Positions 24,811-43,943 of a stretch of 64,000 nt of DNA are shown in pieces. Source of the DNA: Bacteroidales bacterium (lineage in GTDB: Bacteria > Bacteroidota > Bacteroidia > Bacteroidales > UBA932); assembly GCA_017630155.1 (NCBI GenBank), contig JAGBVU010000005.1, positions 144,342 to 208,341 on the forward strand, written 5' to 3'. Below the pieces are notes generated by a model that was not told the DNA's origin, did no database searches, and saw nothing but the letters and a program-made list of their open reading frames with translations. A program made the position numbers and the translations under genes. Position 1 is the stretch's first letter. Each line of letters begins with the position of its first letter.

Positions 24811-24866
24811 TGAAAAATTTTTAAAATGGACCTTTTTGTGTGTGAAAAGTGGGTGGCGAGAGGGCA

Positions 24867-24996
24867 GTCGCGACTTCGGAGTTAAGGTTCTTCAGGCGTT
24901 CGCTCCGCTCACTCCCACCACGCCTTACGGCGCGGTCCCCCCGCTATCAAGCGCGTGTGCTTAGGCCTTCAGAACCTTAATCTCCACAGCCGCGAC
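24867..24996. repeat. ~130 bp palindromic (MITE/REP-like) element, copy 1
   Basis: Termini gtcgcgacttcggagttaaggttcttcag ... cttcagaaccttaatctccacagccgcgac pair with each other. The whole element is the reverse complement of 48505..48629, roughly 85-90 percent identical by eye. Confidence 0.85.
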
Positions 24997-25034
24997 AGAA
25001 AAACGCCGAAAGCTGTCATAGGGAGTTCAGCGAT

Positions 25035-25234: not shown

Positions 25235-25717
25235 TTAATCTTTGTGTGATTTGTCCCGTCTCATTTGTCTTGCCAATTCTTTTCCTCTTTCGGTGGCCAT
25301 GCCGCGTGGATCAGGCTGTATACCGCACCTGACCAAATCGAGTCTGTCTGCATCAAAGCATGTATCTATGGTAATATCGCCTGTATGATGACAGACAGTG
25401 TGATGTTTGCATGCATTGTATAGCAGATCAAACTCCTCATCTGTAAGTTCTTTCAGCAGCGTGTCACGAAGTGGTACAAGATTGTGTGCAGCCCGAATCC
25501 CATGATTGATATCCCTGAAATTGTCTCTTCGCCATTTGTCATGAAGATAGGCAAACAGGGTGACAACTCTCAAATTGACCCCTTCTACTGCCAGACGATG
25601 TCCATTGCTCTCCACATTCCTCCAGTGTTCCTTTCCGTGGGTACGGCCCAGCTCCCAGCCGGCAGCTGCAAATTCAATGACGCGTTGGCGTAACTCCTCA
25701 AACTCTTTGTCTTCCAT
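25235..25717 (-). CDS. HD-domain phosphohydrolase superfamily protein
   Basis: H...HD...D pattern (HGKEHW, AYLHDKWRRD, FDADRLD). Confidence 0.65.
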   Translation of the reverse strand: MEDKEFEELRQRVIEFAAAGWELGRTHGKEHWRNVESNGHRLAVEGVNLRVVTLFAYLHDKWRRDNFRDINHGIRAAHNLVPLRDTLLKELTDEEFDLLYNACKHHTVCHHTGDITIDTCFDADRLDLVRCGIQPDPRGMATERGKELARQMRRDKSHKD

Positions 25718-26480
25718 TTTTTATCAAATAGGCGATTAGTAATATTACCAGGCAAAAGATCCATCTCTGCAACATGTTGTGGTTGATGCAAAACAATGGA
25801 AATATGAAAGGTGTGGTGAAGCCGATAAAATCGAAGAATCTGGGAAATTTTTGCAGGAGCTTGTCCCATTGGGCCGATTTGGCCCAACTGAATGCGGCTA
25901 TTAAGATTGCAGCGATGGGAATCAAGTTTGCAAGATCTACTAAAGCACTTACAACATGAACGTTGTCAAAATTGTTCCAGTGTATATTTTTGACAAGTGT
26001 CCCACCAAAAAGCAAAATGAGACCCACCGATGCCAGAACAGCAGATTTCCATCCATCGAGGTTGAGATCCTTTTTGGAAAGTAAGATACCCATGGAGATA
26101 AAGATGCTGGCATAGAGCAGATAGCATATATCGAAAATAATAATATAAAGTGATAAGCACATGAATCTATTCCGCAGCTCCATTATGCCGAAAAGCGTCA
26201 TGAGGATTATATAAAGGATAGAGCCGATAACGCCTAAAGCAATACATTTGTTTTTATATCTGCCGGTAAAACCTTCAGTTTTCCTGTTGCCAATCTGGAT
26301 TCCAAGCCACATAGCCCATAAAGATACGGCAAGTGTACGTGATGAACCATAACATACTCTGAAGATTGGAACAGATATAGCTTGAATCTCCTCTATAAAG
26401 GTACGGAGTAGAGACAGGACAAGAACAAATAGTATAAAGATAAAGACTGAAAGTTTTTGTGACGATCTTTCCATTTTCAT
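25698..26480 (-). CDS. Polytopic membrane protein, unknown function
   Basis: About 8 hydrophobic helices. Overlaps the HD gene start by 20 nt. No recognisable motif. Confidence 0.6.
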   Translation of the reverse strand: MKMERSSQKLSVFIFILFVLVLSLLRTFIEEIQAISVPIFRVCYGSSRTLAVSLWAMWLGIQIGNRKTEGFTGRYKNKCIALGVIGSILYIILMTLFGIMELRNRFMCLSLYIIIFDICYLLYASIFISMGILLSKKDLNLDGWKSAVLASVGLILLFGGTLVKNIHWNNFDNVHVVSALVDLANLIPIAAILIAAFSWAKSAQWDKLLQKFPRFFDFIGFTTPFIFPLFCINHNMLQRWIFCLVILLIAYLIKNGRQRV

Positions 26481-26499
26481 AGTGTTTTAAATAAAAATA

Positions 26500-27234
26500 T
26501 TAACTTCTGCACCCTTCATTGGCGTTTTTTAACTGCAGTTCTTCAAGGAAGTTTTTATCCCTTTCTCCCTTTTCTTGAAGAAGTTTGCCTGCATTGCCCA
26601 TCGTATTGTCCATCGATTTGATAAGTGCTGGTATGAACAGCTCCAGATTCTCTTTGTCTGTGCATAGAGTGGAGGTGTCGCTAACAAAATCGCACCTGTC
26701 ATCGGATATTCCGAAGAAGCATTTGGTCAAAGTGTCTGTGAAGCAGAGCTCCCTCTCGATATCCATATAGAAATCCTGCATGCTATTGTCCATTCCCATT
26801 ACCATTCGAAGTCTCAAAATATTGCATCCCAACTGAGAGGAGCATTCATTGATAAGGCCATAATTGAAATCCTGATACCTGAATACTACCCATGGCCCAT
26901 TTATTCTGACATCTTCATAGCCCAGTTTTATCAGTGCTGACTCCAAGTCTTCTAAAGTGATAATCGAAGTTCCTTTGGAAACCTCTTTTCCAGTATGTTT
27001 CTCTTCTTCAGTACCTTTCTCATCTTGCTTCTTTTTCATTGCCTCCAATTCAGAAAGTCTGTTTACTAGCATGGTGATGTGTACAATAAATCCAATCACA
27101 GCACAGGCGGCAAAAATGGCTATTAATATATAAATGAATGATTCGGTATTGGTAAACCTTGATAGACCAGTTAATAGAATGATAATAGTTATTATCTCGG
27201 CACAAATGGCCGGTATGTGTTTATTCATGTTCAT
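26500..27234 (-). CDS. Membrane-anchored protein, unknown function
   Basis: Two N-terminal TM helices, a charged linker and a ~150 aa soluble Cys-containing domain. No family assigned. Confidence 0.6.
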   Translation of the reverse strand: MNMNKHIPAICAEIITIIILLTGLSRFTNTESFIYILIAIFAACAVIGFIVHITMLVNRLSELEAMKKKQDEKGTEEEKHTGKEVSKGTSIITLEDLESALIKLGYEDVRINGPWVVFRYQDFNYGLINECSSQLGCNILRLRMVMGMDNSMQDFYMDIERELCFTDTLTKCFFGISDDRCDFVSDTSTLCTDKENLELFIPALIKSMDNTMGNAGKLLQEKGERDKNFLEELQLKNANEGCRS

Positions 27235-27238
27235 AATG

Positions 27239-28156
27239 CTATTTTATTTTATATGGTGGCCTTTTTCTCCACACCACATAGCTGGTGTTTTTAGGGAGTC
27301 CTCTACGACCTTTGAGGATATTTTCGTCTCCGAATTTGTGATGGGTCCCATCTTCTGAGACTGCCCATCCGAAAGCATTGGATCCCACCAGATAGATGGC
27401 ATTGTCCACCCCGAGATCCACCAATACCTGTGCAAAGTCGTGGAATGATTCCTGGGTAAGGCTCTCCACTACGAGAATCTCCCCTTTGCGGTCGCAGATG
27501 GCTCTGCGGATGCTTTTACCTTTGGGCTCGTTATCGACCAATAGGCCATTATCTACAAGTGGATATTGCCTGAAGAAATATCCCCCTTTAGCTGTCGATT
27601 CTTCGAACAGAGGTGTGTTCTCGGCCACCCCGATGGAAATTTTGTCATCTATTATTGCGCAGTAGCCACGTTTGGCAAGTCCCCTTGACTTCTGTTCACC
27701 CTTCAAAACAAATGCACCGACAATACCGCCATTGTCTGCACGGACATCTGCAGCCTGTGCAGCAAAAATTATCTCAGGGTCGCTTTTGTCCAGCTTCCCT
27801 AGATGGAGGGTCATCTGCGCATTGTGCGGGATATAGATCCTTAGGGGAATATCATTGATGGTGGTGTCCACTATCTCTGTAAATCCAGCAGCAGTGGAAT
27901 CAATCTCGGAACCGATCCACCCTTTGTCCACCGGCTCCGAAGTAATATATGCCACCTCAGGCTCGAATAGGGCAGGCTCCGGTTCGTAGAGGGTACTTTG
28001 CCTGATTTTTACCAGTACAACGATGAGTATTCCCAGCACAATGATGATTATTGCTGAAATAAGGTATCTCTTCAAATTTGAAGATGGCACCCATTTGGAT
28101 TTGGTGTAGCCTATCACACGTATTTGGTCATCCCTTATATCGTCAAACTCTTTCAT
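27239..28156 (-). CDS. Membrane-anchored protein, possibly phosphodiester glycosidase (DUF2233/NAGPA-like)
   Basis: One TM helix, then a domain whose C-terminal part (VDLGVDNAIYLVGSNAFGW) resembles the LDGGGS region of that family. Confident it is coding; the function call is weak. Confidence 0.5.
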   Translation of the reverse strand: MKEFDDIRDDQIRVIGYTKSKWVPSSNLKRYLISAIIIIVLGILIVVLVKIRQSTLYEPEPALFEPEVAYITSEPVDKGWIGSEIDSTAAGFTEIVDTTINDIPLRIYIPHNAQMTLHLGKLDKSDPEIIFAAQAADVRADNGGIVGAFVLKGEQKSRGLAKRGYCAIIDDKISIGVAENTPLFEESTAKGGYFFRQYPLVDNGLLVDNEPKGKSIRRAICDRKGEILVVESLTQESFHDFAQVLVDLGVDNAIYLVGSNAFGWAVSEDGTHHKFGDENILKGRRGLPKNTSYVVWRKRPPYKIK

Positions 28157-28619: not shown

Positions 28620-29153
28620 TCAGAACTCCAGACGGAAACCCTTGCTTTTGAGTTCCGCATATTTTTCCGGGTTGAAACTGTAGTTTATAGGGATCCTGCT
28701 TCCGGCATTTTTGGGTCTGGTCCCAACCTCAGTCAGAATGCCGAGCTTGAGCATCTTGTTTGAGAAATTCCTTCTGTCAAACTTCACCTCGAGAATAGAT
28801 TCATAAAGCTCCTGAAGCTGCGGCATCGTGAACACATCGGGGAGAAGTTCGAAACCGATAGGGGCAAAATGGATTCTCTCTTTCAAGGTCTTGAGGGCCA
28901 CTCTTAGAATTCTGTCATGGTCAAAGGCCAGCTGGGGAACCTCATCAATAGGAAACCATTGGGCATCGGCTGCATCATCTCCACCCTTTACTTCGCTCTT
29001 TTTTACCAGAGCATAATATGCAATAGTTATCACCCTCTCACGTGGGTCCCTGTTCACCTCGGAGAAACATCCGAACTGCTCCATGTAATGGGTATCAAGA
29101 CCGGTCTCCTCCATCAATTCTTGTAAAGAATGGATGATATTTTTCGTTACCAA
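28620..29153 (-). pseudogene. Nudix hydrolase / NrtR-like regulator, 5'-truncated
   Basis: The ORF begins inside the Nudix box (..LQELMEETGL), so the upstream Gx5Ex7 half and the N-terminal beta-strands are missing. A C-terminal winged-helix-like part is present. The first 8 codons lie in AT-rich foreign DNA and overlap the helicase ORF tail. Confidence 0.6.
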
Positions 29154-31698
29154 GATTAATAATGTATAAATTCTTTTTAGCTCTCGTGATGGCAGTGTAT
29201 ATTAGTTCAGGATAATTTTCAGCATCACTAGTTTTACTTGGCCGTTGTATTACAAGAAAAATATTATCTGCTTCCCATCCTTTGTAACTATAAATGGTTG
29301 ACAATTTTAGCATATTAGAACTCATCGTAAAATGAGTTTTTCTATTTGTACGAATCTCCTCTATTGCATTACGGAAGCATTTATCTTTTACGTCATTATA
29401 TTTATTTAAAATTATGTCGTACTCTTCCTTCGTTTCAAACACACTCATACTTGACTTTCCTGTAGATTGAGAATATGCGTACTGAATTTCTCGTAAAATA
29501 TCAACTCTTTGAGATAGTATGGCAGTTTTCTGGATTTCTAATTTATCATTATCTATGCAATGTAAAATACAATTGGCTATTGTGTCAGCACTGGCATCTA
29601 CTGACAAGTAATCATACCTTGGTACTTTGTTGTCAAATGACAATATTAATTCATTCTGCTCAATTTCATCAGGATTTTCAAAAAACTCATTTTGAAACTG
29701 AGACGCAAGATTCACGATATGCTGATTATTAAGCCTACGTCCCACTTTTAACCTATTCCAAGGGCCCCACGTTCTACCTCCTAAATTCGGTGTACTATTA
29801 AATGTTCGACGACAATAAACATCTTGCTTTTCATCTCCAAAAATAACAAGTTCTCCACCTTCTTTAAGGAAATTATTATAAAGAATGTGGTACCAATTAT
29901 ATTCATAGTCTTGGGCTTCGTCAATGAATATCGCAGAATACTTTGGAAGATTATCAACTACTTCACTGAAGAAGTTCAGTGTATTGTAAGATGTCAAATC
30001 TAATTTTAGATTATAATTTTTGGCCTGAGTAGTAATGAAGTTATGATAATTGGTAATTACAAATTTATTCCAAGGAAAATCAGCAGGAACACGTCCTATT
30101 CTATATCGGATATAGTTTGCCAATGTAATATTATAGGTTAGTATGAGTATACGTCCTCCTGTTCGCAGTTGAGATTTAACAGCACTGGATGCCAATATCT
30201 GCGTCTTACCCGATCCAGCAACGCCTTTAATTCTAATTTGTCGTCCGTCAAAGCTTTTTGCAAGTTCTCTTTGTCTTTTTGTTAACACAATTTCTCCGTC
30301 TCCCTCATTATATGAGTGCCATTGCATCGTAAGCATTTTTATGATTTCTGAGCTAGCTTCTTTTGTAAATTCTTTACGCGTGCGCTTGACATCTAAGCTA
30401 TATAATATTTCATTATTATTAAAATCTTCAGTTGATAGGGTTACAACTCCTGATATAATATTGGGATTATGAGCATCTTTCTTTTCACCTGCATATACTG
30501 AATCAATTGCTACTCTTGTACTATTTGTAAACCAAATAGCAGGGCGCACAATATACCAGCCTACATTTGACACTAAAGCCGCTTTTAACAATTGTGTAGA
30601 GTGTTGTTCTATAAGGTTTGTCCTGTACGTGTATACTCGAGACAGTGGAGATGGTATTGCTAATCCACCTCTTGATAACATCCCGTTATTCAATGTAAAT
30701 TGATCCAAATTTTCTGAAAACACATTGAGAATTACTATACCTTTTCCCGGCCTGATTAATACAATGTCTGGTTTGTCTCCCTTAAGATCAGGAGAAAGAA
30801 AAATTCGATCATTTTCACTGAGGGTACTGGATATTTTCCGATACACATTAAGAACATCTTGTGACACAAGACCATTTCTTACCATTGCATCAAGGTCGTA
30901 ATCATCATAAGCACCTTCATCTGTATAGTGACCTTCATGGACTACTGCAATAGAATTACTAGTGTTTTCAAAATAAAATCCTTTAGTTTTACAACTAAAT
31001 GTATGAAAAGTATCAGAGGTGACACCAAAACATGGGTCATAGATATCAGAAAACACAGATGTGTTATAGAAATATCTTGAAAATTCATCTATTCTTGAGC
31101 AATTGTCATTAGTCGGTCCAACACACACAACAAACTGCTTACCACGCGCATCTGCAACAATTTTTGCTGTCTTTTGCAATGAAATAGATATTATATCCAA
31201 TATATTTGAGAAAAGATGAATAGTCCCTGGTAGTGTAAGATTGAGCTCTGAAATCTGTGGCACCGGACTATCATTTGATGCAGGCAAGAAGTTCTGAATA
31301 CCTATAACTTCAACATTCCAGCCTTCTAATGCTTTAGATATATTTTCTACAGCCCTTGATAAGGCAATGGGAGATGGTTCTATGAGAGTCACTCTTTTAA
31401 GTCTTCTCAATAGATATGGATCTCGCGCATACAAACTATCCATCATACAAATAGTACCAATACCTTGCCCACACCCCCAATCGACAATTTCGAAAGTTGA
31501 TGGCAGTTCTTCATAAGGAAAGTTCTGCAATGCACTTAGGCATTTGCATTTATGCATTTCACCATATGCACATATATATGCGTTTAATTCATCAGTTGAC
31601 TTTAAAAGTTTTTTGCCATGATCAATATACGCCCATGGATTTCTCCTCCAGCTGAACGGCAATTCTAGCCTTGCTCTTTCAATAATACGGTCTATCAT
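29095..31698 (-). CDS. Fusion protein: class I SAM-methyltransferase-like domain, NERD/PD-(D/E)xK-like region, and UvrD/SF1 helicase
   Basis: Methyltransferase motif I VDWGCGQG (aa 72-79) with LIEPS after it. Strand pattern DIVLIRPGKGIVILNVF (aa 311-327). Walker A GVAGSGKT (aa 492-499), Walker B FIDEAQD (aa 591-597), and a UvrD_C-like end YSYKGWEADNIF...YTAITRAKKNLYIIN. AT-rich. Confidence 0.8.
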   Translation of the reverse strand: MIDRIIERARLELPFSWRRNPWAYIDHGKKLLKSTDELNAYICAYGEMHKCKCLSALQNFPYEELPSTFEIVDWGCGQGIGTICMMDSLYARDPYLLRRLKRVTLIEPSPIALSRAVENISKALEGWNVEVIGIQNFLPASNDSPVPQISELNLTLPGTIHLFSNILDIISISLQKTAKIVADARGKQFVVCVGPTNDNCSRIDEFSRYFYNTSVFSDIYDPCFGVTSDTFHTFSCKTKGFYFENTSNSIAVVHEGHYTDEGAYDDYDLDAMVRNGLVSQDVLNVYRKISSTLSENDRIFLSPDLKGDKPDIVLIRPGKGIVILNVFSENLDQFTLNNGMLSRGGLAIPSPLSRVYTYRTNLIEQHSTQLLKAALVSNVGWYIVRPAIWFTNSTRVAIDSVYAGEKKDAHNPNIISGVVTLSTEDFNNNEILYSLDVKRTRKEFTKEASSEIIKMLTMQWHSYNEGDGEIVLTKRQRELAKSFDGRQIRIKGVAGSGKTQILASSAVKSQLRTGGRILILTYNITLANYIRYRIGRVPADFPWNKFVITNYHNFITTQAKNYNLKLDLTSYNTLNFFSEVVDNLPKYSAIFIDEAQDYEYNWYHILYNNFLKEGGELVIFGDEKQDVYCRRTFNSTPNLGGRTWGPWNRLKVGRRLNNQHIVNLASQFQNEFFENPDEIEQNELILSFDNKVPRYDYLSVDASADTIANCILHCIDNDKLEIQKTAILSQRVDILREIQYAYSQSTGKSSMSVFETKEEYDIILNKYNDVKDKCFRNAIEEIRTNRKTHFTMSSNMLKLSTIYSYKGWEADNIFLVIQRPSKTSDAENYPELIYTAITRAKKNLYIINLGNEKYHPFFTRIDGGDRS

Positions 31699-32744
31699 AG
31701 TCCAATTATCGTTTCACTAATTGGTAAGTTTTTATGTCTCTTAAAGTTTTGGTTTGCTAATTCTTTCGAGGAATTAGCATAGCAATACTCACATTGATGG
31801 ATGCAGGTATTGTATTCTCCGATATCTTTGCTTTCTATGCAGCCACAAAACACTCTCTGACCTTTATCTTTCCTACCCTTTTTCTTTACAGCATATTTCC
31901 CATTACCAAGGTCTATAGCTCCATCAGGTATCTCACCAAATATACCAGTTTCTTCGATTGTTACCCCTAAATGCTGCATGAGCTCTATATCACGATGAGC
32001 AAGTCGTATAATGAGATCGTCATCAATACACTTATTATGACTTATACCATGTTGTTCTATATCAATTTTTTCTCCGCATGTGGCTAACTCGAACCCCCAC
32101 TTCTTATTTAATAGCGATAACTTTTTCGCAAAGTCATTCATTAAGTCAGGAGTCCATTCAATATAATTTATTCCACACTTTTTGAGGTTGGCTTCAACTT
32201 TCCTATATGAAGCAATATCAACAAAACTAAACACAAGTTTTTCCGTGTACCCTTTAAGATTATTACCGATATATTCTATTTTGCGTAATAAATCATCAAT
32301 ACTAATCTTATCAGTTAAAATCAATGGGTCAAATCTCCAGATAACCCGCCCTTTACCAAGAATTTTTACAAGTTCTTTAAATGTTTCTATTCTTGTATCT
32401 ACACTTGGAACTGACTTCTCCAATTCCTCTGAGACATAATCATTGAGTGTAAATTGAATGTAACAACCAATACCCTTATCTTGTAATTTTGATAGGTATG
32501 GAATCAGCGGTCGCGGATTTTTAGACCAGAATACTATAAATCGGGTATGCTTATAAGATATGTAGCTTTTTACTCCGTTAAAAGGATTAATCCAAGCAGA
32601 ATATCCTTTATCCAGTCTATGAAAAAACCAATCTGCATAAAATGCCGGTATATCTGTACTTCGGCTTGCTGACACTATGATGGGTTCCTGAGCAGGGACC
32701 ATTTCACCACTTTCCCTTGTTATATAAGGTTTAGAGTTGAGCAT
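31695..32744 (-). CDS. DUF1848-like protein with a C-terminal radical-SAM-type Cys cluster
   Basis: 349 aa. C-terminal CGC (aa 300-302) followed by CIHQCEYC, a CX3CX2C motif (aa 314-321). Its stop overlaps the helicase start (ATGA). The family name comes from recollection of PF08902 and was not verified. Confidence 0.65.
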   Translation of the reverse strand: MLNSKPYITRESGEMVPAQEPIIVSASRSTDIPAFYADWFFHRLDKGYSAWINPFNGVKSYISYKHTRFIVFWSKNPRPLIPYLSKLQDKGIGCYIQFTLNDYVSEELEKSVPSVDTRIETFKELVKILGKGRVIWRFDPLILTDKISIDDLLRKIEYIGNNLKGYTEKLVFSFVDIASYRKVEANLKKCGINYIEWTPDLMNDFAKKLSLLNKKWGFELATCGEKIDIEQHGISHNKCIDDDLIIRLAHRDIELMQHLGVTIEETGIFGEIPDGAIDLGNGKYAVKKKGRKDKGQRVFCGCIESKDIGEYNTCIHQCEYCYANSSKELANQNFKRHKNLPISETIIGL

Positions 32745-32821
32745 TTACAAATATTTTATTTAGATTTTAGCTGAATACGCCACCACAATTACCGCATTGA
32801 CTCTATTGTCAATGTGCTATA

Positions 32822-32829
32822 CAAAGTTA
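32822..32829 (-). promoter_or_regulatory. -7 box TAACTTTG (minus strand) for the DUF1848-helicase operon
   Basis: Reverse complement of caaagtta, about 78 nt upstream of the ATG at 32744. Confidence 0.4.
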
Positions 32830-32915
32830 CATAAATTATAATATCCTAACAAAACCACCTTTTCAACCATCTTACCCAACTTTACAACCCTATCACAACA
32901 CTCACCCCTCTTTTT

Positions 32916-33515
32916 TTACTCCACCAAAAACACTCTACTCTCTTTGTTGTGTGCTTTGGCAATCATCATGTCTTTTATTTTTGCTTGGAAGTCATCTTCT
33001 GGTGTGTAATCATTGAGTATGGCCAGGCATTTGTCAAATTCACCGATCTCTCTATACATTTCAGATCTGAACAGAGGATTCCCAATAAAGATTGGCTGGC
33101 CTAAACTTTTCACTATGATTTCCCTCAGCAAATCTAAATGTTCTGGTTCGGCCTCAATTTCACTATGGCGTATCTTGTCGTTGAAAGCCCACACGACTAT
33201 CATAGTTAGAAGTTCCAGATTACTGATTTCAGTATCGTAAAGTTCACTGTATGCCTCTACGGCTTCTTCGAACATCAACCAACCTAGTTCAGATGAGTAC
33301 GTGTTACCATTTTCAAATTTGGCTTCGCGCAAATAGAAGTAATGCCCGCAAAAAGAGCATTTCTGAACAGGTGACACTCGGGGCAGCATAGGCGCAATTT
33401 GGCGCATATCAGACCAAAGCATTGCATCGCATGTGTTTCCGGACATCAGTTGGAAAATCTCATTTTTGCCCCCACAGTGGGGACAAACAGCAAGTTTACA
33501 AAAAGCAGGAAGCAT
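32916..33515 (-). CDS. Zinc-ribbon protein, unknown function
   Basis: CPHCGG ... CSFCGH pair at the N-terminus and a helical C-terminal half. No family recognised. Confidence 0.55.
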   Translation of the reverse strand: MLPAFCKLAVCPHCGGKNEIFQLMSGNTCDAMLWSDMRQIAPMLPRVSPVQKCSFCGHYFYLREAKFENGNTYSSELGWLMFEEAVEAYSELYDTEISNLELLTMIVVWAFNDKIRHSEIEAEPEHLDLLREIIVKSLGQPIFIGNPLFRSEMYREIGEFDKCLAILNDYTPEDDFQAKIKDMMIAKAHNKESRVFLVE

Positions 33516-33661: not shown

Positions 33662-33796
33662 TGAGTGCCATGACAATTTTCAACATTTTTACTTAAAAAA
33701 AATAGCCATCATCGCTCCTGATGAAAGCTCTTTTGATCTGTAATCAGCAACTATATTTCCCCGAATTTTCTTAATTCCCCGTTTTTAGGGTTTAAG

Positions 33797-34672
33797 TTAT
33801 TCCTCCTGTTCGTAATAATACGAGTAATCGATGCCCTTCATGAAGGTTTCGCGGTCGTGGATTTTGTCTGTAAGAGCTGATGCGAGAAGTTTGTGGATAG
33901 GGGTGGGGTTGACTACGCTGGTCTGCATGGCCTGGAGGTAGTCGTTTTTGTTGATTTGGCTCCAGTCGACACATCTCTGTAAGCGTTTTTTGAGGATGAG
34001 GTCGAGCCATATACGGGTGGAGCGGCCATTGCCTTCCATGAATGGATGGGCGACGTTCATTTCTACGTATTTGTCAACGATCTGGTCTAATGTATCTTCC
34101 GGCATTGATTCTATCTTCTGCAGTTCGTGTGGGAGATATTCTGCAAGGCAGAAAGTGAATCCTCCTTTGCTGATGGTCTTGTTGCGGATTTGACCGGCAA
34201 AGTCGTAGAGACCGCCGAAGATGTAGGCATGAATCTGCTGCAGGGACTTTATTGTTCCAACATCTTCATATGCCACGAGGTTGCTTTCCATGAAGGTGTA
34301 TGCCTTCTTCTTACTTTTGCCGTCTATTGTGTTGTCACTGTATGTGAACCAGTCGAGGAATGCATTTGCTCTATTGTTCGGATAGTGCTTAGCGAGGATT
34401 TCCACACATTCATTGTCAAGAGCATCTGCAGTTCGCTTCTTTCCGTCAGGAGCCTCAAATTTGAAGTCGTGAGTGATACTCACGAGTTGAACTCCATCTG
34501 CGTTCAGTTTCTTCTTCAGCCAACGCCAATAGTTTCCAGCCTTGACATAGTCATCTCCCTTATTGATTGCACGGACGATGTCAATCGCAGAAAACCACCA
34601 CTTGGAATTGATTTCATCCCAAATGGCTCTGACCTCGCGGTCATTGAAGAATCTGATGAATATCTTACTCAT
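33797..34672 (-). CDS. Bro-N domain / Fic (AMPylase-type) family protein
   Basis: N-terminal Bro-N-like pattern (FNDREVRAIWDEINSKWWFSAIDIVRAI). Canonical Fic motif HPFMEGNGRSTR. Confidence 0.85.
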   Translation of the reverse strand: MSKIFIRFFNDREVRAIWDEINSKWWFSAIDIVRAINKGDDYVKAGNYWRWLKKKLNADGVQLVSITHDFKFEAPDGKKRTADALDNECVEILAKHYPNNRANAFLDWFTYSDNTIDGKSKKKAYTFMESNLVAYEDVGTIKSLQQIHAYIFGGLYDFAGQIRNKTISKGGFTFCLAEYLPHELQKIESMPEDTLDQIVDKYVEMNVAHPFMEGNGRSTRIWLDLILKKRLQRCVDWSQINKNDYLQAMQTSVVNPTPIHKLLASALTDKIHDRETFMKGIDYSYYYEQEE

Positions 34673-34804
34673 AGAAGCAAAGGTACTAAATTTATAGCAC
34701 GGGACCTATATGTTCTCTAAATATCTCACCGCAATTCCCTGAGACTTGGCGTAGGTAATTTCGTTACGGGTGCTTTCGTGCAAAACAGTGTCGAGGACAG
34801 ATGG

Positions 34805-35278
34805 CTATGGAGAAATTATAAAACAAAGAGCCGTCATCGCTCTGACATTTTTATCTGTAACTCGCAACAAATTGCGGTAATGTGTCCAAGATAGTATTTG
34901 GGATTTTCCACTCACTGTGTGGAAAATCTCAGTGAAGAACTTATAAAACTCAACAAACTGATAGAGATTGCTCTTTGTGAATCCCTTACCATATACATTC
35001 GTGAGGTGATCGGCAAGTCGTTTGATAATTTCCTTACCATACTCAACTCTATTCACTCCCTGCAATTCTTCATCAACAATACGCTTACCCAACAGCCAAT
35101 TACGCTGTACCATAGCCACATTAACGGCGTGATATGCATAATTGCGTGTTTGTTCAATGATATTCTGTGAATCCTTAAAAATATCACCTGTATTGCTAGC
35201 CTTTAGTATCTCTATGTCTTGTTTCATAATGCAGAGATATATACTTTTGTCGAAATGAGACACATACAATGATTCCAT
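34805..35278 (-). pseudogene. 3'-truncated copy of the DUF1016/YhcG-type PDDEXK nuclease gene
   Basis: The first ~148 codons are near-identical to the N-terminus of 44174..45289. The nuclease half is absent, and the reading frame runs into unrelated sequence. Confidence 0.85.
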
Positions 35279-35336
35279 CTAGTAGAACAAAACGGCCCAG
35301 ATCTTTAACGAATCTGGGCCTATTTTTTTATTTATT
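34847..35336. repeat. ~490 bp direct repeat, copy 1 (pairs with 44857..45347)
   Basis: About a dozen mismatches over ~490 bp by eye. It includes the nuclease gene 5' half, its upstream region, a hairpin terminator and the last 9 nt of the 45339..47390 gene. Confidence 0.9.
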
Positions 35337-35521
35337 GCCTTCGTGCAAAACGGAGTCCAGCATAGATGGCCCTAGATAGGCCTCTGATCACGATTCCGCT
35401 GGACACCTGAACCATTTAGCTCGGTTATCCAAGCCAACGCCATTCACAACTCCTTGTAAAGCACTTTAGACTGGACAATTACTAGTAGGCTCATATGAAA
35501 AGTACTATAATTATATATCTA

Positions 35522-38500
35522 TCATTTCAATAAACTTATCTCATCAGTAGACATTCCAACAATCTGTAATAATGTGATCATATCATCTGTATTTGTTGCC
35601 CATAGAGTCGGCTCATGTTGGAAATTATGCTTACACAACTCATTCCACTTAGAACGTTCAGATTCAAGAGAAGCAGACAAGAATAAGAGCTTACAATTAG
35701 TATTTCTAGAATCACGGCTTTCAATCATAGATTCTTTTCTTACAAATGCATCAGACTTCTTATCCATTTGCTGGAGCAATTCATTGACATCAGTGTATCT
35801 GCGGTCAACATACGGATAATTTTCCTCACCCACCACATGCTTGTAAATAGAAAAGCCCTTCAATCTTGACCATAATGCGTTGATTAATGTCTCTTTAAGA
35901 GTATTCTTGAACTTAATTATCTGATCTTCACTTATATTGTACTGATTCTTGAACATTGAAGACAACCTAATCTCCTTAGTTATACTATCTTTCTGTTCTT
36001 CAAAGTATGAATCAAGACAAGGGTTAGATATCAATGATAGGAACGGTTCTCTATTCATTGGCTCAATCTTCACACTTTCCTCTTCTTCAGCACGCCAAAC
36101 CTTAAGATTACCGACATACGATTTCATACCGTTATACTTAGTATGAAGATTCTTTGACAATTTGGAAAGAGAGTCAATAATCATACCGGCAACATGGGTC
36201 TTGATATGTATTATATCTATCTCCCTAGTCCTCTTTGTTATCTCGTCAGTTATTCTGTCTAATCGATGTTTGTAATCCTCATCCAGATCCACTTTCTTAT
36301 GTTTCCTTTGTTTAGACCACAAAGCGAAGACGAGAGAGCCTACGACTAACAAACCGTAAACGATATAACTCACAGTACTAAATAACACATCCTCTACTGA
36401 TTCACTATACGAGCACACTAAAATAAATGTCAACAGGATAGTTGCAGCCACACCCCAGAACACCCATTTTGTAACCTTAGTTTTCTTATCAAAAGCCTCA
36501 AGCTGCACAGTACGCTCTTCATGAACACGTTCCTTTGAAGAATGCAAGTCGCGTTTTTCCATCTCAAGACGCTTAATAGATCCGTCGCAAATAGAATTTC
36601 TCGTCGCATTGTTTCCAAGAAGCTGCGTCAAAGTATTATATTCAACCGTTTTTGCACTGAATTTGGTACTGAGTGTTGCCAGATTTACCTTTTCTTCCTC
36701 TATAAGATTCTTCAATATCGCTGCCTTAATCTGGGAGTTTGACATATCGAATGATATTGTTGTCTTATTGTCCTTTCCTCCTACCGTGAGTTTATTGTCT
36801 GAAATCTGAGTAATAATACAAGCAATATTCATCAGACTCGGATCAGCTATGTAAGAATATGGTATATAGCAATATCCTCTATCACCAAATCTTGTTCCCC
36901 ATGAATTCCTTACAATGAAGATCTTCTCCTCCTCACTGTAACCACAGAGAATCATCGCATGATTTCCACTTTCCCCAGAAATCTCTTCAGAGGTTGGTCG
37001 AGAAATGAATCCCTCTACTGGCTCGAATGAGTCATAAATCTTCAATGATATTGCTACAGGGTATCCTTCAGAAATTGCTGATTTTATATCATCAAGGGTG
37101 CCCTTTACATTCAACGCCTTAATTATCTTGTTACTCTGTGCATCATCATAGGCCTCTTGCGAAGGATTTATATCTAATGTTTCCGAATACGGACAGAAAC
37201 GTTCATGGCAAACACCCTTATCAGTAATTGAAGATATTACTTCAAAGAGAGAACTTCCTGTATCTTCTTTCTCCTTATTGTTGGCTTTGCGCACATTATA
37301 GTAAACAAAGCTCTCACTCAAATCTGGCTCGCTTATACTATTCCTTTTAAGGATATATTCGAAAATGCCGACAATTGAGAATGCAGAACATGCACCAATT
37401 TCACCCTGATCTTTAATCGTAGTAAAGAACGGTCTCAAATCCACCTTTGCAGGAAGATTTGTCTTTGGAACATAATCCTCAGAACAAGGAATTTCAGTAA
37501 CATTCGCCTGCAGCTGGTACGTTTTACCCTCAAAAACAAAACCGTCACGAGTTAATCTCTTCTGGCTTTCAGTATTATCTTTTATTAAAACCTCTACCCC
37601 CTCTAATTCCTCTGACTTATGACGAATGTAATTTGAAGACTCCCTCATCCTAACCTTGATCGCCTTCACATCATCTATAATCGCACTCGCAGATGCCACT
37701 GCTGTCTTTGCTGAACCTGAAAGTGCTGCATACTCTGCAATAGACTCTCGTTCTGTTTTCTCTGTAGCAACGTCTGTTTCTTCTATCGACGTTGTAGGAT
37801 ATAGCGCAGCTAGATTATTATTCAATTGAACAAACAAATCTAGCACTTCCCTAGCACAGTCATCAATTACAAGTTGACGCTTATTGAACATATATCCAGT
37901 CAATAAATCGTCATCCTCGCCTAAAAGTTGAGCTAATGTCGCCTTCTTCTCTGGCAAAGACAAGTTATCGTCATCGACAAAAGACTGGAAGACATCAGTC
38001 AAACGTTGAACCTCGGTCTGAAGTTCCGGATGTATCTGAGCTATTATTTCATCTTGTTGTTCTCCCCTATCAAGTCTCGCCTTTACAGATTTATTATAGA
38101 AAGAGGTAAATATCTCTACATTCTCTTTCAGAATCTTTTGTACAATCTGAGAGACCTTATTTACATCTACCTCTTCTTGGCGTACCTTTTCCCTATCAAG
38201 GATATTGATATAGGCTTTATGCAATAGATATTGCACAAAGTAATACTTGTCAAAACTTAGAACAGAGAGGCCTAGTGCATGTATCAATCTATCCTCCGAC
38301 TCTGCAGCAGGATTAAATAGTTCCTGATAATGATTTAAGGAAAGAAGAGTATATTCTCCAATGATTCTCACAAAGGACTCAAGCACCAGATTCAATGCAA
38401 CTCCCGCAGAGTTACAGTTCTGCAATAGAATCGCATGCGCTATCTGTCTTTGAGTTTTATTGAATTCAATGATTTCATTGATGGTCTTCTTAGTCTGTTG

Positions 38501-39025
38501 TTGGTACTCATTTACCTTAAGAGGCAACAAGTCGGCATCCTTCTCGAACAGATAGGCAAGATCGTAAGGAAGCAACAAAAGGTCAACATTGTAGTTCTGC
38601 GGGATTGCATTTATTGCTCCTAAAAACTCCTTGATTGTTGACCAACACTTTGCATCATATGTCTTCAGGTGAAAACACACATGCAATGATGTAGAATCTC
38701 CAGGATTGTTAATCGTTACTTGACGATTATATAATTCAGAGTAAAAGCTCTTCAAATACTCGCTTCTATTCGCTGCCGGGATACGATATTTCTCAACAGA
38801 CTTTACTGAGTACAAGTTATCAATACCTGCAACAAACTTACTGGCATCATCTAGAGCAGGTATGGCCTCATAAAAAATAGAGTCTCCTTCCCGCTTGTCA
38901 TCAAATAATATGGCACGAAAAAAATCCGTCGACTTTTCATTACCATACTTAATGATGTACTCCTGAAGATTGCAAAGCATCTGCTCGGCATTACTGCCGA
39001 GCATTATATGCACCGTGTGTCTCAT
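35522..39025 (-). CDS. Multidomain membrane protein: degenerate tubulin-like N-domain, papain-like (C1) cysteine peptidase, coiled coil, 2 TM helices, C-terminal domain
   Basis: Peptidase C1 triad motifs KDQGEIGACSAFS (Cys546), GNHAMILCGY (His689), VRNSWG (Asn707). TM helices at about aa 853-875 and 884-903. The N-terminus aligns by eye to the GTPase of the upstream gene but has lost the glycine loops. Confidence 0.8.
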   Translation of the reverse strand: MRHTVHIMLGSNAEQMLCNLQEYIIKYGNEKSTDFFRAILFDDKREGDSIFYEAIPALDDASKFVAGIDNLYSVKSVEKYRIPAANRSEYLKSFYSELYNRQVTINNPGDSTSLHVCFHLKTYDAKCWSTIKEFLGAINAIPQNYNVDLLLLPYDLAYLFEKDADLLPLKVNEYQQQTKKTINEIIEFNKTQRQIAHAILLQNCNSAGVALNLVLESFVRIIGEYTLLSLNHYQELFNPAAESEDRLIHALGLSVLSFDKYYFVQYLLHKAYINILDREKVRQEEVDVNKVSQIVQKILKENVEIFTSFYNKSVKARLDRGEQQDEIIAQIHPELQTEVQRLTDVFQSFVDDDNLSLPEKKATLAQLLGEDDDLLTGYMFNKRQLVIDDCAREVLDLFVQLNNNLAALYPTTSIEETDVATEKTERESIAEYAALSGSAKTAVASASAIIDDVKAIKVRMRESSNYIRHKSEELEGVEVLIKDNTESQKRLTRDGFVFEGKTYQLQANVTEIPCSEDYVPKTNLPAKVDLRPFFTTIKDQGEIGACSAFSIVGIFEYILKRNSISEPDLSESFVYYNVRKANNKEKEDTGSSLFEVISSITDKGVCHERFCPYSETLDINPSQEAYDDAQSNKIIKALNVKGTLDDIKSAISEGYPVAISLKIYDSFEPVEGFISRPTSEEISGESGNHAMILCGYSEEEKIFIVRNSWGTRFGDRGYCYIPYSYIADPSLMNIACIITQISDNKLTVGGKDNKTTISFDMSNSQIKAAILKNLIEEEKVNLATLSTKFSAKTVEYNTLTQLLGNNATRNSICDGSIKRLEMEKRDLHSSKERVHEERTVQLEAFDKKTKVTKWVFWGVAATILLTFILVCSYSESVEDVLFSTVSYIVYGLLVVGSLVFALWSKQRKHKKVDLDEDYKHRLDRITDEITKRTREIDIIHIKTHVAGMIIDSLSKLSKNLHTKYNGMKSYVGNLKVWRAEEEESVKIEPMNREPFLSLISNPCLDSYFEEQKDSITKEIRLSSMFKNQYNISEDQIIKFKNTLKETLINALWSRLKGFSIYKHVVGEENYPYVDRRYTDVNELLQQMDKKSDAFVRKESMIESRDSRNTNCKLLFLSASLESERSKWNELCKHNFQHEPTLWATNTDDMITLLQIVGMSTDEISLLK

Positions 39026-39029
39026 AGAC

Positions 39030-41771
39030 CTATAGATGTTTCTTTACGTAATCGAGTTCCAAAGTTATAAGCTCTCTGATTCTCTCAAATCCCTTTGCCT
39101 TTATTTGGTCCTTTGTCATATTTATCTGAGAGTAAGCATTCAGATAGTTAGCCTTCGCAGCAGATATTATCTTTAAAACAGCCTCCTGCCCCTTTTGAGA
39201 AACAAGGGTTTCAATAATATCAGTAAACTCTTTCAATATCACGGCCTTGTTCCTTCTAAACTCATCATAAGCCTCATCGCGATATTTGCCCAAATCTACC
39301 CAGTTATCATCCAGAGTATCTCCTAGTTCCTGACTCTGGAACTGATATGTACCATTGTCATTTCTCACAAGGCCAAAAATAAAGCCCTTAACCCACATTT
39401 CAAGTAAATCGTCATCAGAAGCCCTCTTAGGAACAATAGCATACTCTTCTCTTACCATTCTTGTCAACATATTATTGTCGAAATGGCAGTTTACATTACA
39501 ATCCTCATATTCTCTCTTGTATTCCTGAATTGATGAGATTGCGTATGCCGGAACTACACCAACCTGTCTATAGATGATGATTCTATCGTTCACGCCGATG
39601 TTTGCAAAATCCACATCCGCAGTACCATGTATCTTACCCTTGAAATAGTTGTCCTTAAAGAGACGACTCGTTGCTTTATTTGGTACACCCACATAGAAAC
39701 TATCTCTAGGATTTTCCTTTGGAGCATAACCTCTATAATTGTATCGGAACAATGGCATAGACTTCTTGACTGCCAATTCTACAACATGCTTGAAATCGTC
39801 TTCTGACAATTTATCAATTATCTGATCAATTGTTGTCTCTGCCAATGACTTTGCGACATGAGTGCGTGATGTATAACGCAAGAGCATATCCTCTACCTCT
39901 CCTGAAGACAACTCATGGAATCCGTATATTTTTCCTTCATTGATTAGTGTCCTTACAAAATCCGAAATCTGGATATCATCCTGCTTAACAGACACTTTTG
40001 ATGCCGCTTCTAGGGCAAGGTCGATCTGGAAAGTACGAGAAGTCTTACCCACACTGTTCTGGATCTTTGAAAGATCAGATGTAAACTTCTTATATATACC
40101 ATTAAGAGTGCTATGTATAACCTTCACTTTATCCTCAGCAATCTGAAGCATTGACAGAATATTGTTAAACACAGTGAGCGCAGAGGTCCTACGAACGATC
40201 TCTCTCTGACATACCACAAGCTGCCTTACCGCATCAGCCACATCTGTAGCTCTATCCTCTAAAGTCGACGACTTCTTAAAGAACTTGGAGTCATATTCTT
40301 TAAGATCCGCTACTGCGGTTTCCATCGCAGTTCTCAGCCTTGGCTCCTTGTCAACAAAGTCTTCTTTCTCTTTCTGCATCTCTCCGATGAAGAGATTTAC
40401 CTGAGTACGAATACCCTCAATAATTTTTGCCGCAGTTGAAACACCACACTCTTTATTGATATTTGCCACCAAGAGTTCACGAAGTTCCTTCCTAACTCTT
40501 GATGTCAAAGTAGTAATCTTAGGTGACACGAATTCATCAGCCAACTGCTGAGCTGCAATGTACTGCTGGATTTCAGGAGTTGGATTAGCATACTCGTTGA
40601 TAGTGATATCATACTTTGGATTCTTATCAGCAATGAAATCAATAACGTGGTCATTATTATTGTTTTCTCTGATATTCACTTTCTCAGAATCAATCCAAGA
40701 GTTTACAATCACATCAATATCCTCACATGTATTTTGTAATCTCTCAATGAGACTCTTTGCTGCCTTGATTGAATATATCTTACTAATTGACGAACTCTTG
40801 TAAAGAATCTCGCAAACACCCATACCTGCAGCCCATGCCTTTTTGTTCTCAATATCCATTGAGCCTTCTGCAATATTCTTCTCAAGGTTATCACTCACAC
40901 TCGCTGATGCAGTGGACAGCTCTCCTGCTGAGGTAACCAGAGCAAGACTTATCATCTCGGTCAGTTCATCAATATGAGTATACGAATCATTATTCTCATT
41001 CTTATTATCAATGAAAACGACCGAATTGAATGGTCGCTCTTTTATCTCATAACTATCTCTTATGTACTCCAATTTGACAGGAGTAGATCCAATACCCATA
41101 TGCATGAGATAGTCAAGATCCTGAATTGCACCATATGCATTTGGTGCAACTTTTGCCATACCTGAATTAGACATCGACTTGAACACATCCGGAAGGACCG
41201 CATAACCTGTAAGTTTGCATCCCGGAGCCTCCTTACGAAGCAGATATGCCATATTTAAGAAAGTGCCACATCCTGTTCCACCACACACAGAGAATATCAT
41301 ATGAATCTCTGTATCTGAGCCCAAGAGCTCATACTTATCGTTATTGATTATTCTTGCATTTGTAATCTGGTCAAGAATGCTTCTAATCTTCTGCGCTACC
41401 TGAACATAATTAACTGTGAATGCAAATCTTCCATTTGTCCTTACCTGTCCTGCGCCCTGATTCAGGGAAGACAATGCATACAAGTTCTTATCTGGCACCC
41501 AAGAAAAGTACTCCTTATTCACATCATATATAGGTCGAGGATCTCGAACAATAATAGGAAGCTGCTCATTTGGCAAAAGGGAAATTTCCTCACCCGTTGT
41601 AGATGGGAGAGTCTTCTTATATTGATTTCCATCTGTATCAATACCCATGAAGCCGATCATAGGTGGAACCTCACCATATGTATCAACGAACATCTTCTTT
41701 GTGTGAAGAAGCGCATTCATACCTGTACCACCCATTCCGACGTACAGGCATCTTTTAATTTTTGAGCCCAT
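39030..41771 (-). CDS. Tubulin/FtsZ-superfamily GTPase-like protein with a long helical C-terminal extension
   Basis: T1-like GMGGTGMNA (aa 12-20), T3-like NQGAGQVRTNG (aa 104-114), and T4 signature-like CGGTGCG (aa 163-169), in the correct order. 913 aa. Confidence 0.7.
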   Translation of the reverse strand: MGSKIKRCLYVGMGGTGMNALLHTKKMFVDTYGEVPPMIGFMGIDTDGNQYKKTLPSTTGEEISLLPNEQLPIIVRDPRPIYDVNKEYFSWVPDKNLYALSSLNQGAGQVRTNGRFAFTVNYVQVAQKIRSILDQITNARIINNDKYELLGSDTEIHMIFSVCGGTGCGTFLNMAYLLRKEAPGCKLTGYAVLPDVFKSMSNSGMAKVAPNAYGAIQDLDYLMHMGIGSTPVKLEYIRDSYEIKERPFNSVVFIDNKNENNDSYTHIDELTEMISLALVTSAGELSTASASVSDNLEKNIAEGSMDIENKKAWAAGMGVCEILYKSSSISKIYSIKAAKSLIERLQNTCEDIDVIVNSWIDSEKVNIRENNNNDHVIDFIADKNPKYDITINEYANPTPEIQQYIAAQQLADEFVSPKITTLTSRVRKELRELLVANINKECGVSTAAKIIEGIRTQVNLFIGEMQKEKEDFVDKEPRLRTAMETAVADLKEYDSKFFKKSSTLEDRATDVADAVRQLVVCQREIVRRTSALTVFNNILSMLQIAEDKVKVIHSTLNGIYKKFTSDLSKIQNSVGKTSRTFQIDLALEAASKVSVKQDDIQISDFVRTLINEGKIYGFHELSSGEVEDMLLRYTSRTHVAKSLAETTIDQIIDKLSEDDFKHVVELAVKKSMPLFRYNYRGYAPKENPRDSFYVGVPNKATSRLFKDNYFKGKIHGTADVDFANIGVNDRIIIYRQVGVVPAYAISSIQEYKREYEDCNVNCHFDNNMLTRMVREEYAIVPKRASDDDLLEMWVKGFIFGLVRNDNGTYQFQSQELGDTLDDNWVDLGKYRDEAYDEFRRNKAVILKEFTDIIETLVSQKGQEAVLKIISAAKANYLNAYSQINMTKDQIKAKGFERIRELITLELDYVKKHL

Positions 41772-41782
41772 TGTGTTATTAT

Positions 41783-43715: not shown

Positions 43716-43914
43716 AGAAACGCATTATAATATACCATTAAAACGAAAGCGTGGCGCTGAAGCTTATCTAACTGACTGGTCCTAGGAATAACCGCGTGAA
43801 TAAATAAGCGACAACCCCACGCCGTAAATCCGGATTGGATACGACGAAGGAGCGAGCTTATCCTCTTCACTTATGAATTTCCTAGGTTCGTCAGTGAGAA
43901 CAAACTACACTTTC
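43716..43914 (-). other. ~200 nt GC-richer structured insert between the promoter and the vWA gene, flanked by an 11 bp direct repeat
   Basis: gtgtttttcat occurs at 43705-43715 and 43915-43925. Nested complementary arms: aaacgaaagcgtg / cactttcgtgttt and ctgac..cctaggaa / ttcctagg..gtcag. Confidence 0.5.
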
Positions 43915-43935
43915 GTGTTTTTCATCATGTATGTG

Positions 43936-43943
43936 CAAATATA
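43936..43943 (-). promoter_or_regulatory. -7 box TATATTTG (minus strand) upstream of the four-gene operon
   Basis: Reverse complement of caaatata. It ends about 8 nt before the ATGATG of the 7-codon upstream ORF. Confidence 0.4.

Follow-up and report, generated by a model that had tools for sequence, protein, structure and literature searches.

A horizontally acquired gene pair for a DUF1848 protein and a methyltransferase-like/helicase fusion in a Bacteroidales genome, and its likeness to an unnamed family of mobile conflict modules

In the UG25 reverse transcriptases (RTs) of the UG/Abi family a methylase domain stands at the N-terminus, and a DUF1848 gene accompanies them; the partner of the UG35 methylase-RTs is a UvrD-like helicase, and that of the UG34 RTs a NERD-helicase (Mestre et al. 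2022, PMC9226505). Here we describe a gene pair in a 64,000-nucleotide stretch of DNA from a Bacteroidales bacterium (the window) whose first gene encodes a DUF1848 protein (P0001) and whose second encodes a protein (P0002) in which a methyltransferase-like head is joined to a NERD-like domain and a superfamily 1 (SF1) helicase. The pair looks like a member of an unnamed family of mobile conflict (defense-type) modules seen mostly in Bacteroidales of the gut and rumen. Like UG25 and UG35, it combines DUF1848 with a variable nucleic-acid enzyme that bears a methyltransferase domain, but unlike UG25 and the defense-associated RT (DRT) systems it has no RT: none was found in the window, nor in any of the 80 loci described below. 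There was no RVT-type Pfam match in the pair and 29 neighboring open reading frames (ORFs), no RT-type match in PADLOC in the pair and 10 neighbors, and no RT in the Pfam tallies of 77 head proteins or of 115 longer relatives of a methyltransferase from one class of these loci (class C, below). To our knowledge, no function has been demonstrated for the UG25 system.

Other described systems resemble P0002 in its helicase. The NERD + UvrD candidates of PADLOC (C3a187), Gabija GajB and Nhi-like proteins are alike in this respect, and the helicase matches many GajB models, if only partially. Unlike these proteins, P0002 has a methyltransferase head, a DUF1848 partner and a NERD-like domain whose E-x-K motif is lost, and no GajA-like OLD-family ATPase-nuclease was found in 24–48 kb of the window. 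DarT–DarG offers a proposed analogy, in function only, as a nucleic-acid-modifying enzyme that is paired with a reversing enzyme, but the chemistry that we propose here would be S-adenosylmethionine (SAM)-dependent alkylation and radical-SAM removal, not ADP-ribosylation. With no RT, no GajA and no DNA amino-methyltransferase motif, the locus does not fit DRT/UG25, Gabija or restriction-modification (R-M); membership of Gabija, Nhi, DRT and classical R-M was considered and rejected. An earlier note on this DNA, made from its letters alone, had recognized no named system, and PADLOC likewise returned only accessory or candidate models (RTasDUF1848, C3a187 NERD+UvrD and RTasNERD-Hel).

The two genes share an ATGA at 31695–31698, in which the ATG of P0002 (31698–31696) overlaps the TGA of P0001 (31697–31695). 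The GC content of the pair is 0.34–0.37, as against 0.44–0.53 a few kilobases downstream. The earlier note had described two AT-rich, translationally coupled genes on the minus strand, and the ORFs, their overlap and the low GC content were all found (Table 1). A candidate promoter of the Bacteroidetes type, for which the consensus in Bacteroides is TTTG/TAnnTTTG, lies within the cassette ~78 nt 5' of the P0001 ATG.

Table 1. Coordinates in the window of the gene pair, its domains and its insertion site
Feature	Coordinates	Strand	Source
P0001, long-form DUF1848 gene, 349 residues	31695-32744	minus	ORF listing
P0002, fusion protein gene, 867 residues	29095-31698	minus	ORF listing
Acquired two-gene cassette, 3.8 kb, GC ~0.35	29115-32916	minus	blastn against same-genus genome G007
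Candidate Bacteroidetes-type promoter: TTTG (32853-32850), 20 nt, TAACTTTG (32829-32822)	32822-32853	minus	read off the sequence
P0001 C-terminal Cys cluster: C300-G-C302, 11 residues, C314-IHQ-C318-E-Y320-C321 (CX3CxPhiC)	31782-31847	minus	
P0001 long-form insert, ~residues 250-292, absent from the short form	31869-31997	minus	alignment
P0002 head, predicted class I SAM-methyltransferase fold, Rsm22/METTL17-like, residues 1-235	30994-31698	minus	AF2, VIA, Foldseek
P0002 NERD-like domain, degenerate catalytic motif (D311 ... N326-V-F328 for E-x-K)	30499-30840	minus	PADLOC, alignments
P0002 UvrD-type SF1 helicase core	29149-30291	minus	Pfam UvrD_C_2, Viral_helicase1, AAA_19 and UvrD-helicase above cut-offs
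Right junction: last 8 P0002 codons (RIDGGDRS) and TGA read from Nudix-box DNA	29095-29126	minus	
3' remnant of disrupted Nudix/NrtR-like regulator gene (context, outside the module)	28620-29126	minus	Pfam

The boundaries of the cassette were obtained by aligning 20 kb of a contig (L029) from a genome of the same genus (G007) to the window by blastn. Positions 9406–10239 of the contig aligned to 33741–32917 of the window and positions 10787–12648 to 29114–27246, and the intervening 547 bp (10240–10786) had no counterpart. Homology ends at 32917, right after the stop codon of a 199-residue zinc-ribbon ORF, and restarts at 29114, within the Nudix box (…MEETGLD in the Nudix frame). Thus, the cassette replaces 547 bp of the ancestral locus, comprising the 5' third of a Nudix/NrtR gene and the spacer upstream of it. 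Genome G007 has an intact 254-residue gene of this type, 98% identical over the remnant that is left in the window, which spans NUDIX profile positions 51–131, NrtR_WHD and AraR_C; the insertion into and truncation of a Nudix/NrtR-like gene, already claimed from the letters, is borne out by this intact copy. Since P0002 homologs terminate ~4 residues past a conserved FF, the protein is essentially complete in spite of the borrowed codons at its end. The comparison shows the cassette to be a horizontally acquired, self-contained two-gene operon. Only 8 of the 31 related genomes, with G000 counted, have a DUF1848 match; G006 is the sole one of the seven other genomes of the genus to have it, at 44% identity.

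Close homologs of P0001 (66–80% identity) are very numerous in Bacteroidales metagenomes. In each of the first four homolog contexts a head-bearing gene lay immediately downstream, with a gap or overlap of 2–8 bp, and its product started with a head of ~230 residues (DWGCGQ, LIEPS, HxxSNxLD) and went on into a different tail: Sel1 repeats, DEAD/Helicase_C (1700 residues), an unassigned sequence of >775 residues or, in a split form, nothing beyond a stand-alone 194 residues. The Sel1-tailed partner is an intact 550-residue protein in one contig and is divided into a 194-residue head and a 356-residue tail in near-identical contigs (compared at L002:9068–10719 and L004:8555–10207), which may reflect a frameshift or phase variation.

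Eighty genome loci of long-form DUF1848 were taken from collections rich in metagenome-assembled genomes, in which contig ends hide some neighbors, and were scanned with hidden Markov models (HMMs), Pfam and PADLOC. Most were from Bacteroidales and some from Denitrovibrio, Desulfobacterium, Lentisphaerae, Kiritimatiellae and Bacillota. A head was present beside DUF1848 in at least 50 of the 80, usually with stop/start coupling. The 27 loci of class A have DUF1848 followed by a head with one tail or another, and the architecture of P0002 itself follows DUF1848 in L052, L055, L063, L039, L044 and L110. Class B (6 loci) has DUF1848, a 350-residue UvrD-like protein, 2CompART+2CompARG (PF22546/PF22545) and a protein of ~510 residues with the head in its C-terminal half (L074:7023–11274; also L042, L069, L076, L077 and L090). 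No paper on 2CompART/2CompARG was found in the literature searched. Class C (9 loci) has a related methyltransferase of ~270 residues (DFGCGTGG), a UvrD-like protein, a 555–769-residue protein that belongs to no family and begins MKKYYIPTSSLNF…, and DUF1848 last (L100:2085–7053; also L094, L099, L104, L106, L107, L109, L111 and a second copy in L030); the system in L111 is flanked by two integrase-like genes. A relationship between the class B ART/ARG protein and the 688-residue protein of class C was considered, but BLASTP gave only a 27-residue N-terminal similarity (E 0.036), and homology was not established. In eight further loci the head has another position, as in the giant NERD/Dna2 or PD-(D/E)xK + Upf1-like helicases of L060 and L062, where the methyltransferase domain is C-terminal; of the loci left over, some ten are truncated at a contig end. 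The class C methyltransferase also has longer relatives, which are fusions with canonical NERD (most of them), Schlafen-AlbA_2, PIN_4 or PF18731.

A profile of the head found 1427 cluster representatives at 50% identity (784 of them at E ≤ 1e-30), 216–2494 residues long and with the head almost always N-terminal. Among 77 head proteins the tails recognized by Pfam were LRR_5 (34), LRR_8 (27), Sel1 (17) and FNIP (7) and, more rarely, TPR families, WG_beta_rep, FGE-sulfatase and SF1 and SF2 helicases; structure neighbors in the ESM Atlas were Bacteroidota clusters with UvrD helicase (853–887 residues), DEAD helicase, Sel1 or LRR tails. A profile census placed the head in 78 of 36,145 genera, mainly Bacteroidia. 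DUF1848 lay within 3 kb of it in 0 of 6, 9 of 30 and 18 of 36 carriers in successive bands of likeness, and in none of the random places. A census with a single sequence (residues 1–290 of P0002 near PF08902) gave fewer than 3 in 300 and was set aside as insensitive because the partners share only 23–40% identity. The two-gene architecture of P0002 and a class C system, the latter between integrase-like genes, are also present on unverified "Bacteriophage sp." contigs from human feces. Recurring as it does in dozens of independent genomes, the pairing is far beyond chance. The earlier note had called for a survey of DUF1848 beside SF1 helicases; the pairing does recur, but its constant member is the head and the helicase varies. 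The conserved unit, then, is DUF1848 with the methyltransferase-like head, to which the helicase is attached as one among many exchangeable tails.

What kind of protein is the head? Its motifs are VDWGCGQG (motif I, residues 72–79), LIEPS (motif II, 105–109) and, after β4, HLFSNILD (161–168; HxFSNILD). The AlphaFold2 (AF2) model has a pLDDT of 88 and is matched by Foldseek, with probability 1.0, to many SAM methyltransferases. In VIA structure comparisons the model was closest to Rsm22-like 6sg9_F1 (Z 16.8, 213 residues aligned) and to METTL17 (8csp_7; Z 15.3, 193 aligned, root-mean-square deviation 2.8), with generic methyltransferases at Z 11–14. Residues D73, G75, G77, E107, H161, S164, N165 and D168 are near-invariant, both in 35 aligned sequences and in 72–75 census carriers, which argues for retained SAM binding by the head. 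A search with regular expressions found no [DNS]PP[YFWH] motif anywhere in P0002, and a sequence search of the PDB with the head gave nothing significant. Relatives of the head have only sub-threshold matches to Methyltransf_23/25/31/12 and Rsm22, and the sister protein in L060 has a weak Rsm22 match in Pfam. On its predicted structure, the head is Rsm22/METTL17-like and not a DNA amino-methyltransferase. It shares its fold and conserved motifs I and II with Rsm22/METTL17, as well as with MidA/NDUFAF7 and GRAS proteins; unlike the Rsm22/METTL17 proteins of mitoribosome assembly, it is found in bacteria, joined to helicases or repeats and with DUF1848 as its partner.

The rest of P0002 (residues 287–846) matches the PADLOC model C3a187 "NERD+UvrD" with an E-value of 1.5e-42, and P0002 matches RTasNERD-Hel at 1e-15. 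Where the Pfam-recognized NERD of the L060 protein has GIRILEFK, P0002 has GIVILNVF, and an alignment with L052, L055 and L039 shows that the subfamily of P0002 has N/D-x-F/C in place of E-F-K. With E-x-K lost, there is no active nuclease evident in the two-gene version. The helicase motifs, by contrast, are all intact, among them Walker A (GVAGSGKT, residues 492–499, nt 30202–30225) and Walker B (FIDEAQD, 591–597, nt 29908–29928). Helicase matches in Pfam cover residues ~470–848, with the UvrD_C_2 end at 800–847, and score 35.1 bits for UvrD_C_2 (cut-off 27.4), 32.4 for AAA_19 (25.1) and 31.7 for UvrD-helicase (23). The three-part fusion that had been described from the letters, with no motif IV, was found with its motifs and with the loss of the NERD E-x-K (N-x-F). 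HMM searches recognized PF08902 in P0001 and UvrD_C_2 in P0002, as expected, but gave no methyltransferase or NERD match for P0002 in Pfam (no PF08378 at E ≤ 0.1), and an NCBIfam scan of the pair returned nothing useful.

P0001 matches DUF1848 (PF08902) over the full profile (positions 1–262 of 262; E 1.1e-92, 311 bits against a cut-off of 30.5), as the earlier note had assigned it, and the PADLOC accessory model RTasDUF1848 at 9e-39. The C-terminal CGC-x11-CIHQCEYC that the note had pointed out lies exactly where it was placed. Seven cysteines (C223, C239, C300, C302, C314, C318 and C321) are invariant in 37 aligned long- and short-form members; C314, C318 and C321 form CX3C-x-Y-C with the invariant aromatic Y320, a radical-SAM signature at the C-terminus and not at its canonical N-terminal position. 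The AF2 model (pLDDT 92.7, pTM 0.91) is a (β/α)-type barrel. In an exhaustive VIA search radical-SAM enzymes filled most of the top rows, at Z 8–9.8, with MqnE at 9.8, PFL-AE at 9.4, spore photoproduct lyase (4fhc) at 9.2 and HydG at 9.1, and with HemN, BioB, Elp3 and viperin (Z 7.9) among the further matches; the earlier note had proposed a structure prediction to look for a partial barrel with a SAM/Fe-S site, and the likeness of the model to these enzymes is moderate. These matches align the barrel of P0001 to the part of each enzyme that follows the N-terminal cluster loop, which we read as a permuted radical-SAM-type enzyme, at moderate Z. P0001 is accordingly a predicted permuted radical-SAM-type Fe-S enzyme. 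It resembles spore photoproduct lyase and the radical-SAM (PF04055) superfamily in its CX3CxPhiC triad with an invariant aromatic residue and, at moderate Z, in its modeled partial barrel, and, as for spore photoproduct lyase, its genomic context points to a DNA substrate. Unlike radical-SAM enzymes, it has the Cys triad at the C-terminus and not before β1, consistent with permutation, and four extra invariant cysteines. A phmmer search of PDB sequences gave nothing below E 0.5. A complex prediction with the DUF1848 and head alignments scored 0.00, which speaks neither for nor against binding.

DUF1848 is carried by 3255 of 36,145 sampled prokaryotic genera (~9%), mostly of anaerobic lineages, and is scarcely mentioned in the literature searched. 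The long form is a clade of its own, on a long branch from a short form of ~310 residues that is without the insert. The neighbors of the short form are instructive. In a Gilliamella locus (L115, 3309–6127) an AlkD-like DNA_alkylation gene overlaps DUF1848 and is followed by an Ada/Ogt-type gene; in a Dysgonomonas locus (L117, 2809–7257) DNA_alkylation, DUF1848, Ogt/Ada-like, Ada_Zn_binding, AlkB-like 2OG-Fe oxygenase and HhH-GPD glycosylase genes follow one another in this order; and in a family relative (L016, 821–2448) DNA_alkylation precedes DUF1848. A crude HMM built on three DNA_alkylation sequences found no such neighbor in 30 further short-form loci, most of them of one family, so that the AlkD link holds for three of the seven first-sampled contexts and is not universal. 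In one further Bacteroidota family, with DUF1848 in 55 of 87 genomes, 4 of 10 DUF1848 genes tested overlap at their start with the gene for a small Cdd1 (PF11731)/TfoX_C helix-hairpin-helix protein (L134:1181–1504, L130:1127–1504, L132:2415–2813 and L147:2391–2693). Other DUF1848 contexts include flavodoxin-type neighbors. From gene neighborhood we infer that the substrate is DNA, and specifically alkylated DNA, and the operon context of the short form suggests a radical-SAM DNA-repair activity. The guess, made beforehand, that the pair is a nucleic-acid modification system fits these repair and helix-hairpin-helix contexts.

We consider it likely that DUF1848 and the methyltransferase head make up a conserved mobile module that acts on nucleic acid; targeting of nucleic acid is also suggested by the fusion of class C methyltransferases to NERD, Schlafen-AlbA_2 and PIN domains. 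The best explanation of the locus as a whole, to which we give a probability of roughly 0.4, is a mobile conflict module in which the head writes a mark and DUF1848 erases or processes it. The variable tail would supply recognition or loading, and in P0002 the helicase tail would load the protein on nucleic acid, most likely the DNA of an invading element. The head would then alkylate (methylate) the nucleic acid with SAM, as a mark or a lesion, and DUF1848 would remove or further process the mark by radical-SAM chemistry, serving as an eraser or immunity partner that protects or resets host nucleic acid, in the manner of the ART and ARG of class B. We take the head as a working enzyme because it is the sole enzymatic domain in the LRR, Sel1 and TPR members and because P0002 has no active nuclease, and DUF1848 as an eraser or processor because its sister clade lies in alkylation-repair operons and class B pairs it with ART+ARG. 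The specific writer/eraser mechanism, taken by itself, is offered tentatively, as somewhat less likely than not. A bolder version, that DUF1848 is a new kind of DNA (or RNA) repair enzyme, the oxygen-independent radical-SAM dealkylase of the Ada-type operons of anaerobes, with the long form recruited as an immune eraser and the head as a writer of lesion-type methylation on whatever target its exchangeable tail recognizes, we regard as unlikely; if true, a radical-SAM DNA dealkylase would explain AlkB-like repair without oxygen in strict anaerobes.

Whichever mechanism applies, the repair operons and the mobile methyltransferase-linked module together give a testable idea of DUF1848 chemistry, and the module connects the UG25 association of RT, methylase and DUF1848 with helicase, nuclease and ART/ARG systems. 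The head is a sizeable domain family that has no Pfam model and is found for the most part in Bacteroidales of the gut and rumen, and its combination with hypervariable tails is a pattern typical of immune or conflict proteins. We class the locus as a defense-island helicase module with novel accessory enzymology.

Several observations weigh against a conflict module of writer and eraser. For the head, residues 1–235 match no curated model and no methyltransferase family of Pfam, including PF09243, above cut-off, and the nearest folds (Rsm22/METTL17, MidA and GRAS) include non-catalytic or protein-directed members. For P0001, radical-SAM enzymes are only moderately similar in structure (Z 8–10), Foldseek against the PDB gave generic TIM barrels alone (TM <0.3), and Pfam found no Radical_SAM (PF04055) and nothing besides DUF1848 at E ≤ 0.1. 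The repair-operon context belongs to the short-form clade, which a long branch separates from the long form. The LRR, Sel1 and TPR tails of many members suggest protein ligands, not nucleic acid. The variable gene order, with DUF1848 last in class C, weakens an argument from antitoxin-first arrangement; long-form DUF1848 is sometimes solitary (in L031, L037, L064 and L065, for example), and the census link is ~50% in the upper band, not 85–100%. We know of no established function or biochemistry for DUF1848 and of no phage-defense phenotype for the module.

Some of the same evidence could be read as R-M-like self-marking, in which the head and DUF1848 together would give host DNA a protective, possibly hypermodified, mark and the helicase/NERD tail or a nuclease would attack DNA that is unmarked. 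The island context of the cassette would suit such a system, as would the fusion of sister methyltransferases to NERD, PIN, HEPN-like and Schlafen-AlbA_2 nucleases, the PD-(D/E)xK/Dna2 and Upf1-like helicases of L060 and L062 and an N6_N4 DNA methyltransferase that adjoins the DUF1848 gene of L013 (55% identity). Yet P0002 and the proteins closest to it in architecture have lost the NERD E-x-K, with no nuclease evident, the head is Rsm22-like and has no DPPY/NPPY-type motif, the tails of most family members are LRR, Sel1 or TPR and include no nuclease, and the relatives of DUF1848 are in repair operons, not modification operons, so we judge self-marking to be improbable. Those operons, of Ada/AlkD/AlkB/AlkA-like genes with short-form DUF1848, could point instead to an accessory role in DNA repair, with DUF1848 mending alkylated or damaged DNA, the helicase-methyltransferase recruiting it to lesions and no part in conflict at all. 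UvrD-type helicases are repair enzymes, the Joint Genome Institute (JGI) labels some members "DNA repair photolyase", and DUF1848 is in 55 of 87 genomes of the one Bacteroidota family. A role confined to repair is nonetheless distinctly improbable in view of the long form, which is a separate clade of patchy distribution (with a match in 8 of the 31 related genomes), of the regulator gene that the cassette disrupted on insertion, and of partner tails that are extremely polymorphic, with ART/ARG and nuclease fusions and with integrative or phage-like contigs.

Lower still we place a small-molecule route, in which DUF1848, as a viperin-like enzyme or a synthase of a signal or toxin, would make a modified nucleotide or SAM-derived product; the SAM-binding head would be a sensor or co-enzyme, and the helicase the trigger. 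Viperin is among the radical-SAM fold matches (Z 7.9), but two dozen other radical-SAM enzymes ranked at least as high. LRR, TPR and Sel1-like repeats serve as sensor modules in other immune proteins, and the variable tails may by analogy resemble these, but no nucleotide kinase, cyclase or receptor-type effector recurred in the loci scanned, and short-form DUF1848 is coupled to DNA-binding and DNA-repair proteins. The nucleotide-derived effector that the earlier note had proposed as its other option gained no support. It is very improbable, finally, that the two genes have no functional link or that the cassette is decaying. P0002 does take its final 8 residues and its stop codon from Nudix DNA, its NERD motif is degenerate and the partner gene is split in L002. 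Against this, the pairing and its stop/start coupling are kept across many genera, neither ORF is broken and every helicase and SAM-pocket motif is in place, the native C-terminus would lie only ~4 residues past the junction, and the degeneration of NERD, being common to the whole subfamily, is not recent decay.

The surroundings of the cassette are a variable island, and its neighbors (Fic and YhcG/DUF1016 nucleases) are defense-like. The 199-residue ORF directly upstream (32916–33515) has two CxxC pairs and a weak zf-ChsH2 match; it is 93% conserved in G007 and hence belongs to the recipient locus, outside the module. Beyond it, a second block of ~10.3 kb (33742–44060) is absent from G007. 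This block contains a Fic protein (33797–34672; PADLOC candidate PDC-S04, E 1e-156), a truncated DUF1016_N ORF (34805–35278), a 1167-residue papain-like Peptidase_C1 protein (35522–39025), a 913-residue Tubulin_2 (PF13809) protein (39030–41771) and two 337-residue ORFs that match no family; the tubulin-like and papain-like pair looks like a separate operon. The DUF1016_N fragment (34840–35336) duplicates, at 97.6% identity, the 5' part of a G007 YhcG/DUF1016 gene, which also aligns to a full YhcG gene at 44174–45289 of the window. That a duplicated YhcG segment of ~500 bp borders the 10-kb insertion suggests that recombination took place within genes of the YhcG type. A third difference from G007, at 25713–27245, is an indel of ~1.5 kb with a GC content of ~0.40, which replaces ~85 bp in G007 and has ORFs of 244 and 260 residues, neither with a Pfam or PADLOC match. 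Finally, a repeat of ~120–190 bp is found at 24866–25017 and 48440–48629, on both outer borders of the variable region; it is 88–97% identical to two places in the G007 contig and may be a REP/MITE-like element (repetitive extragenic palindrome or miniature inverted-repeat transposable element) or a boundary repeat.

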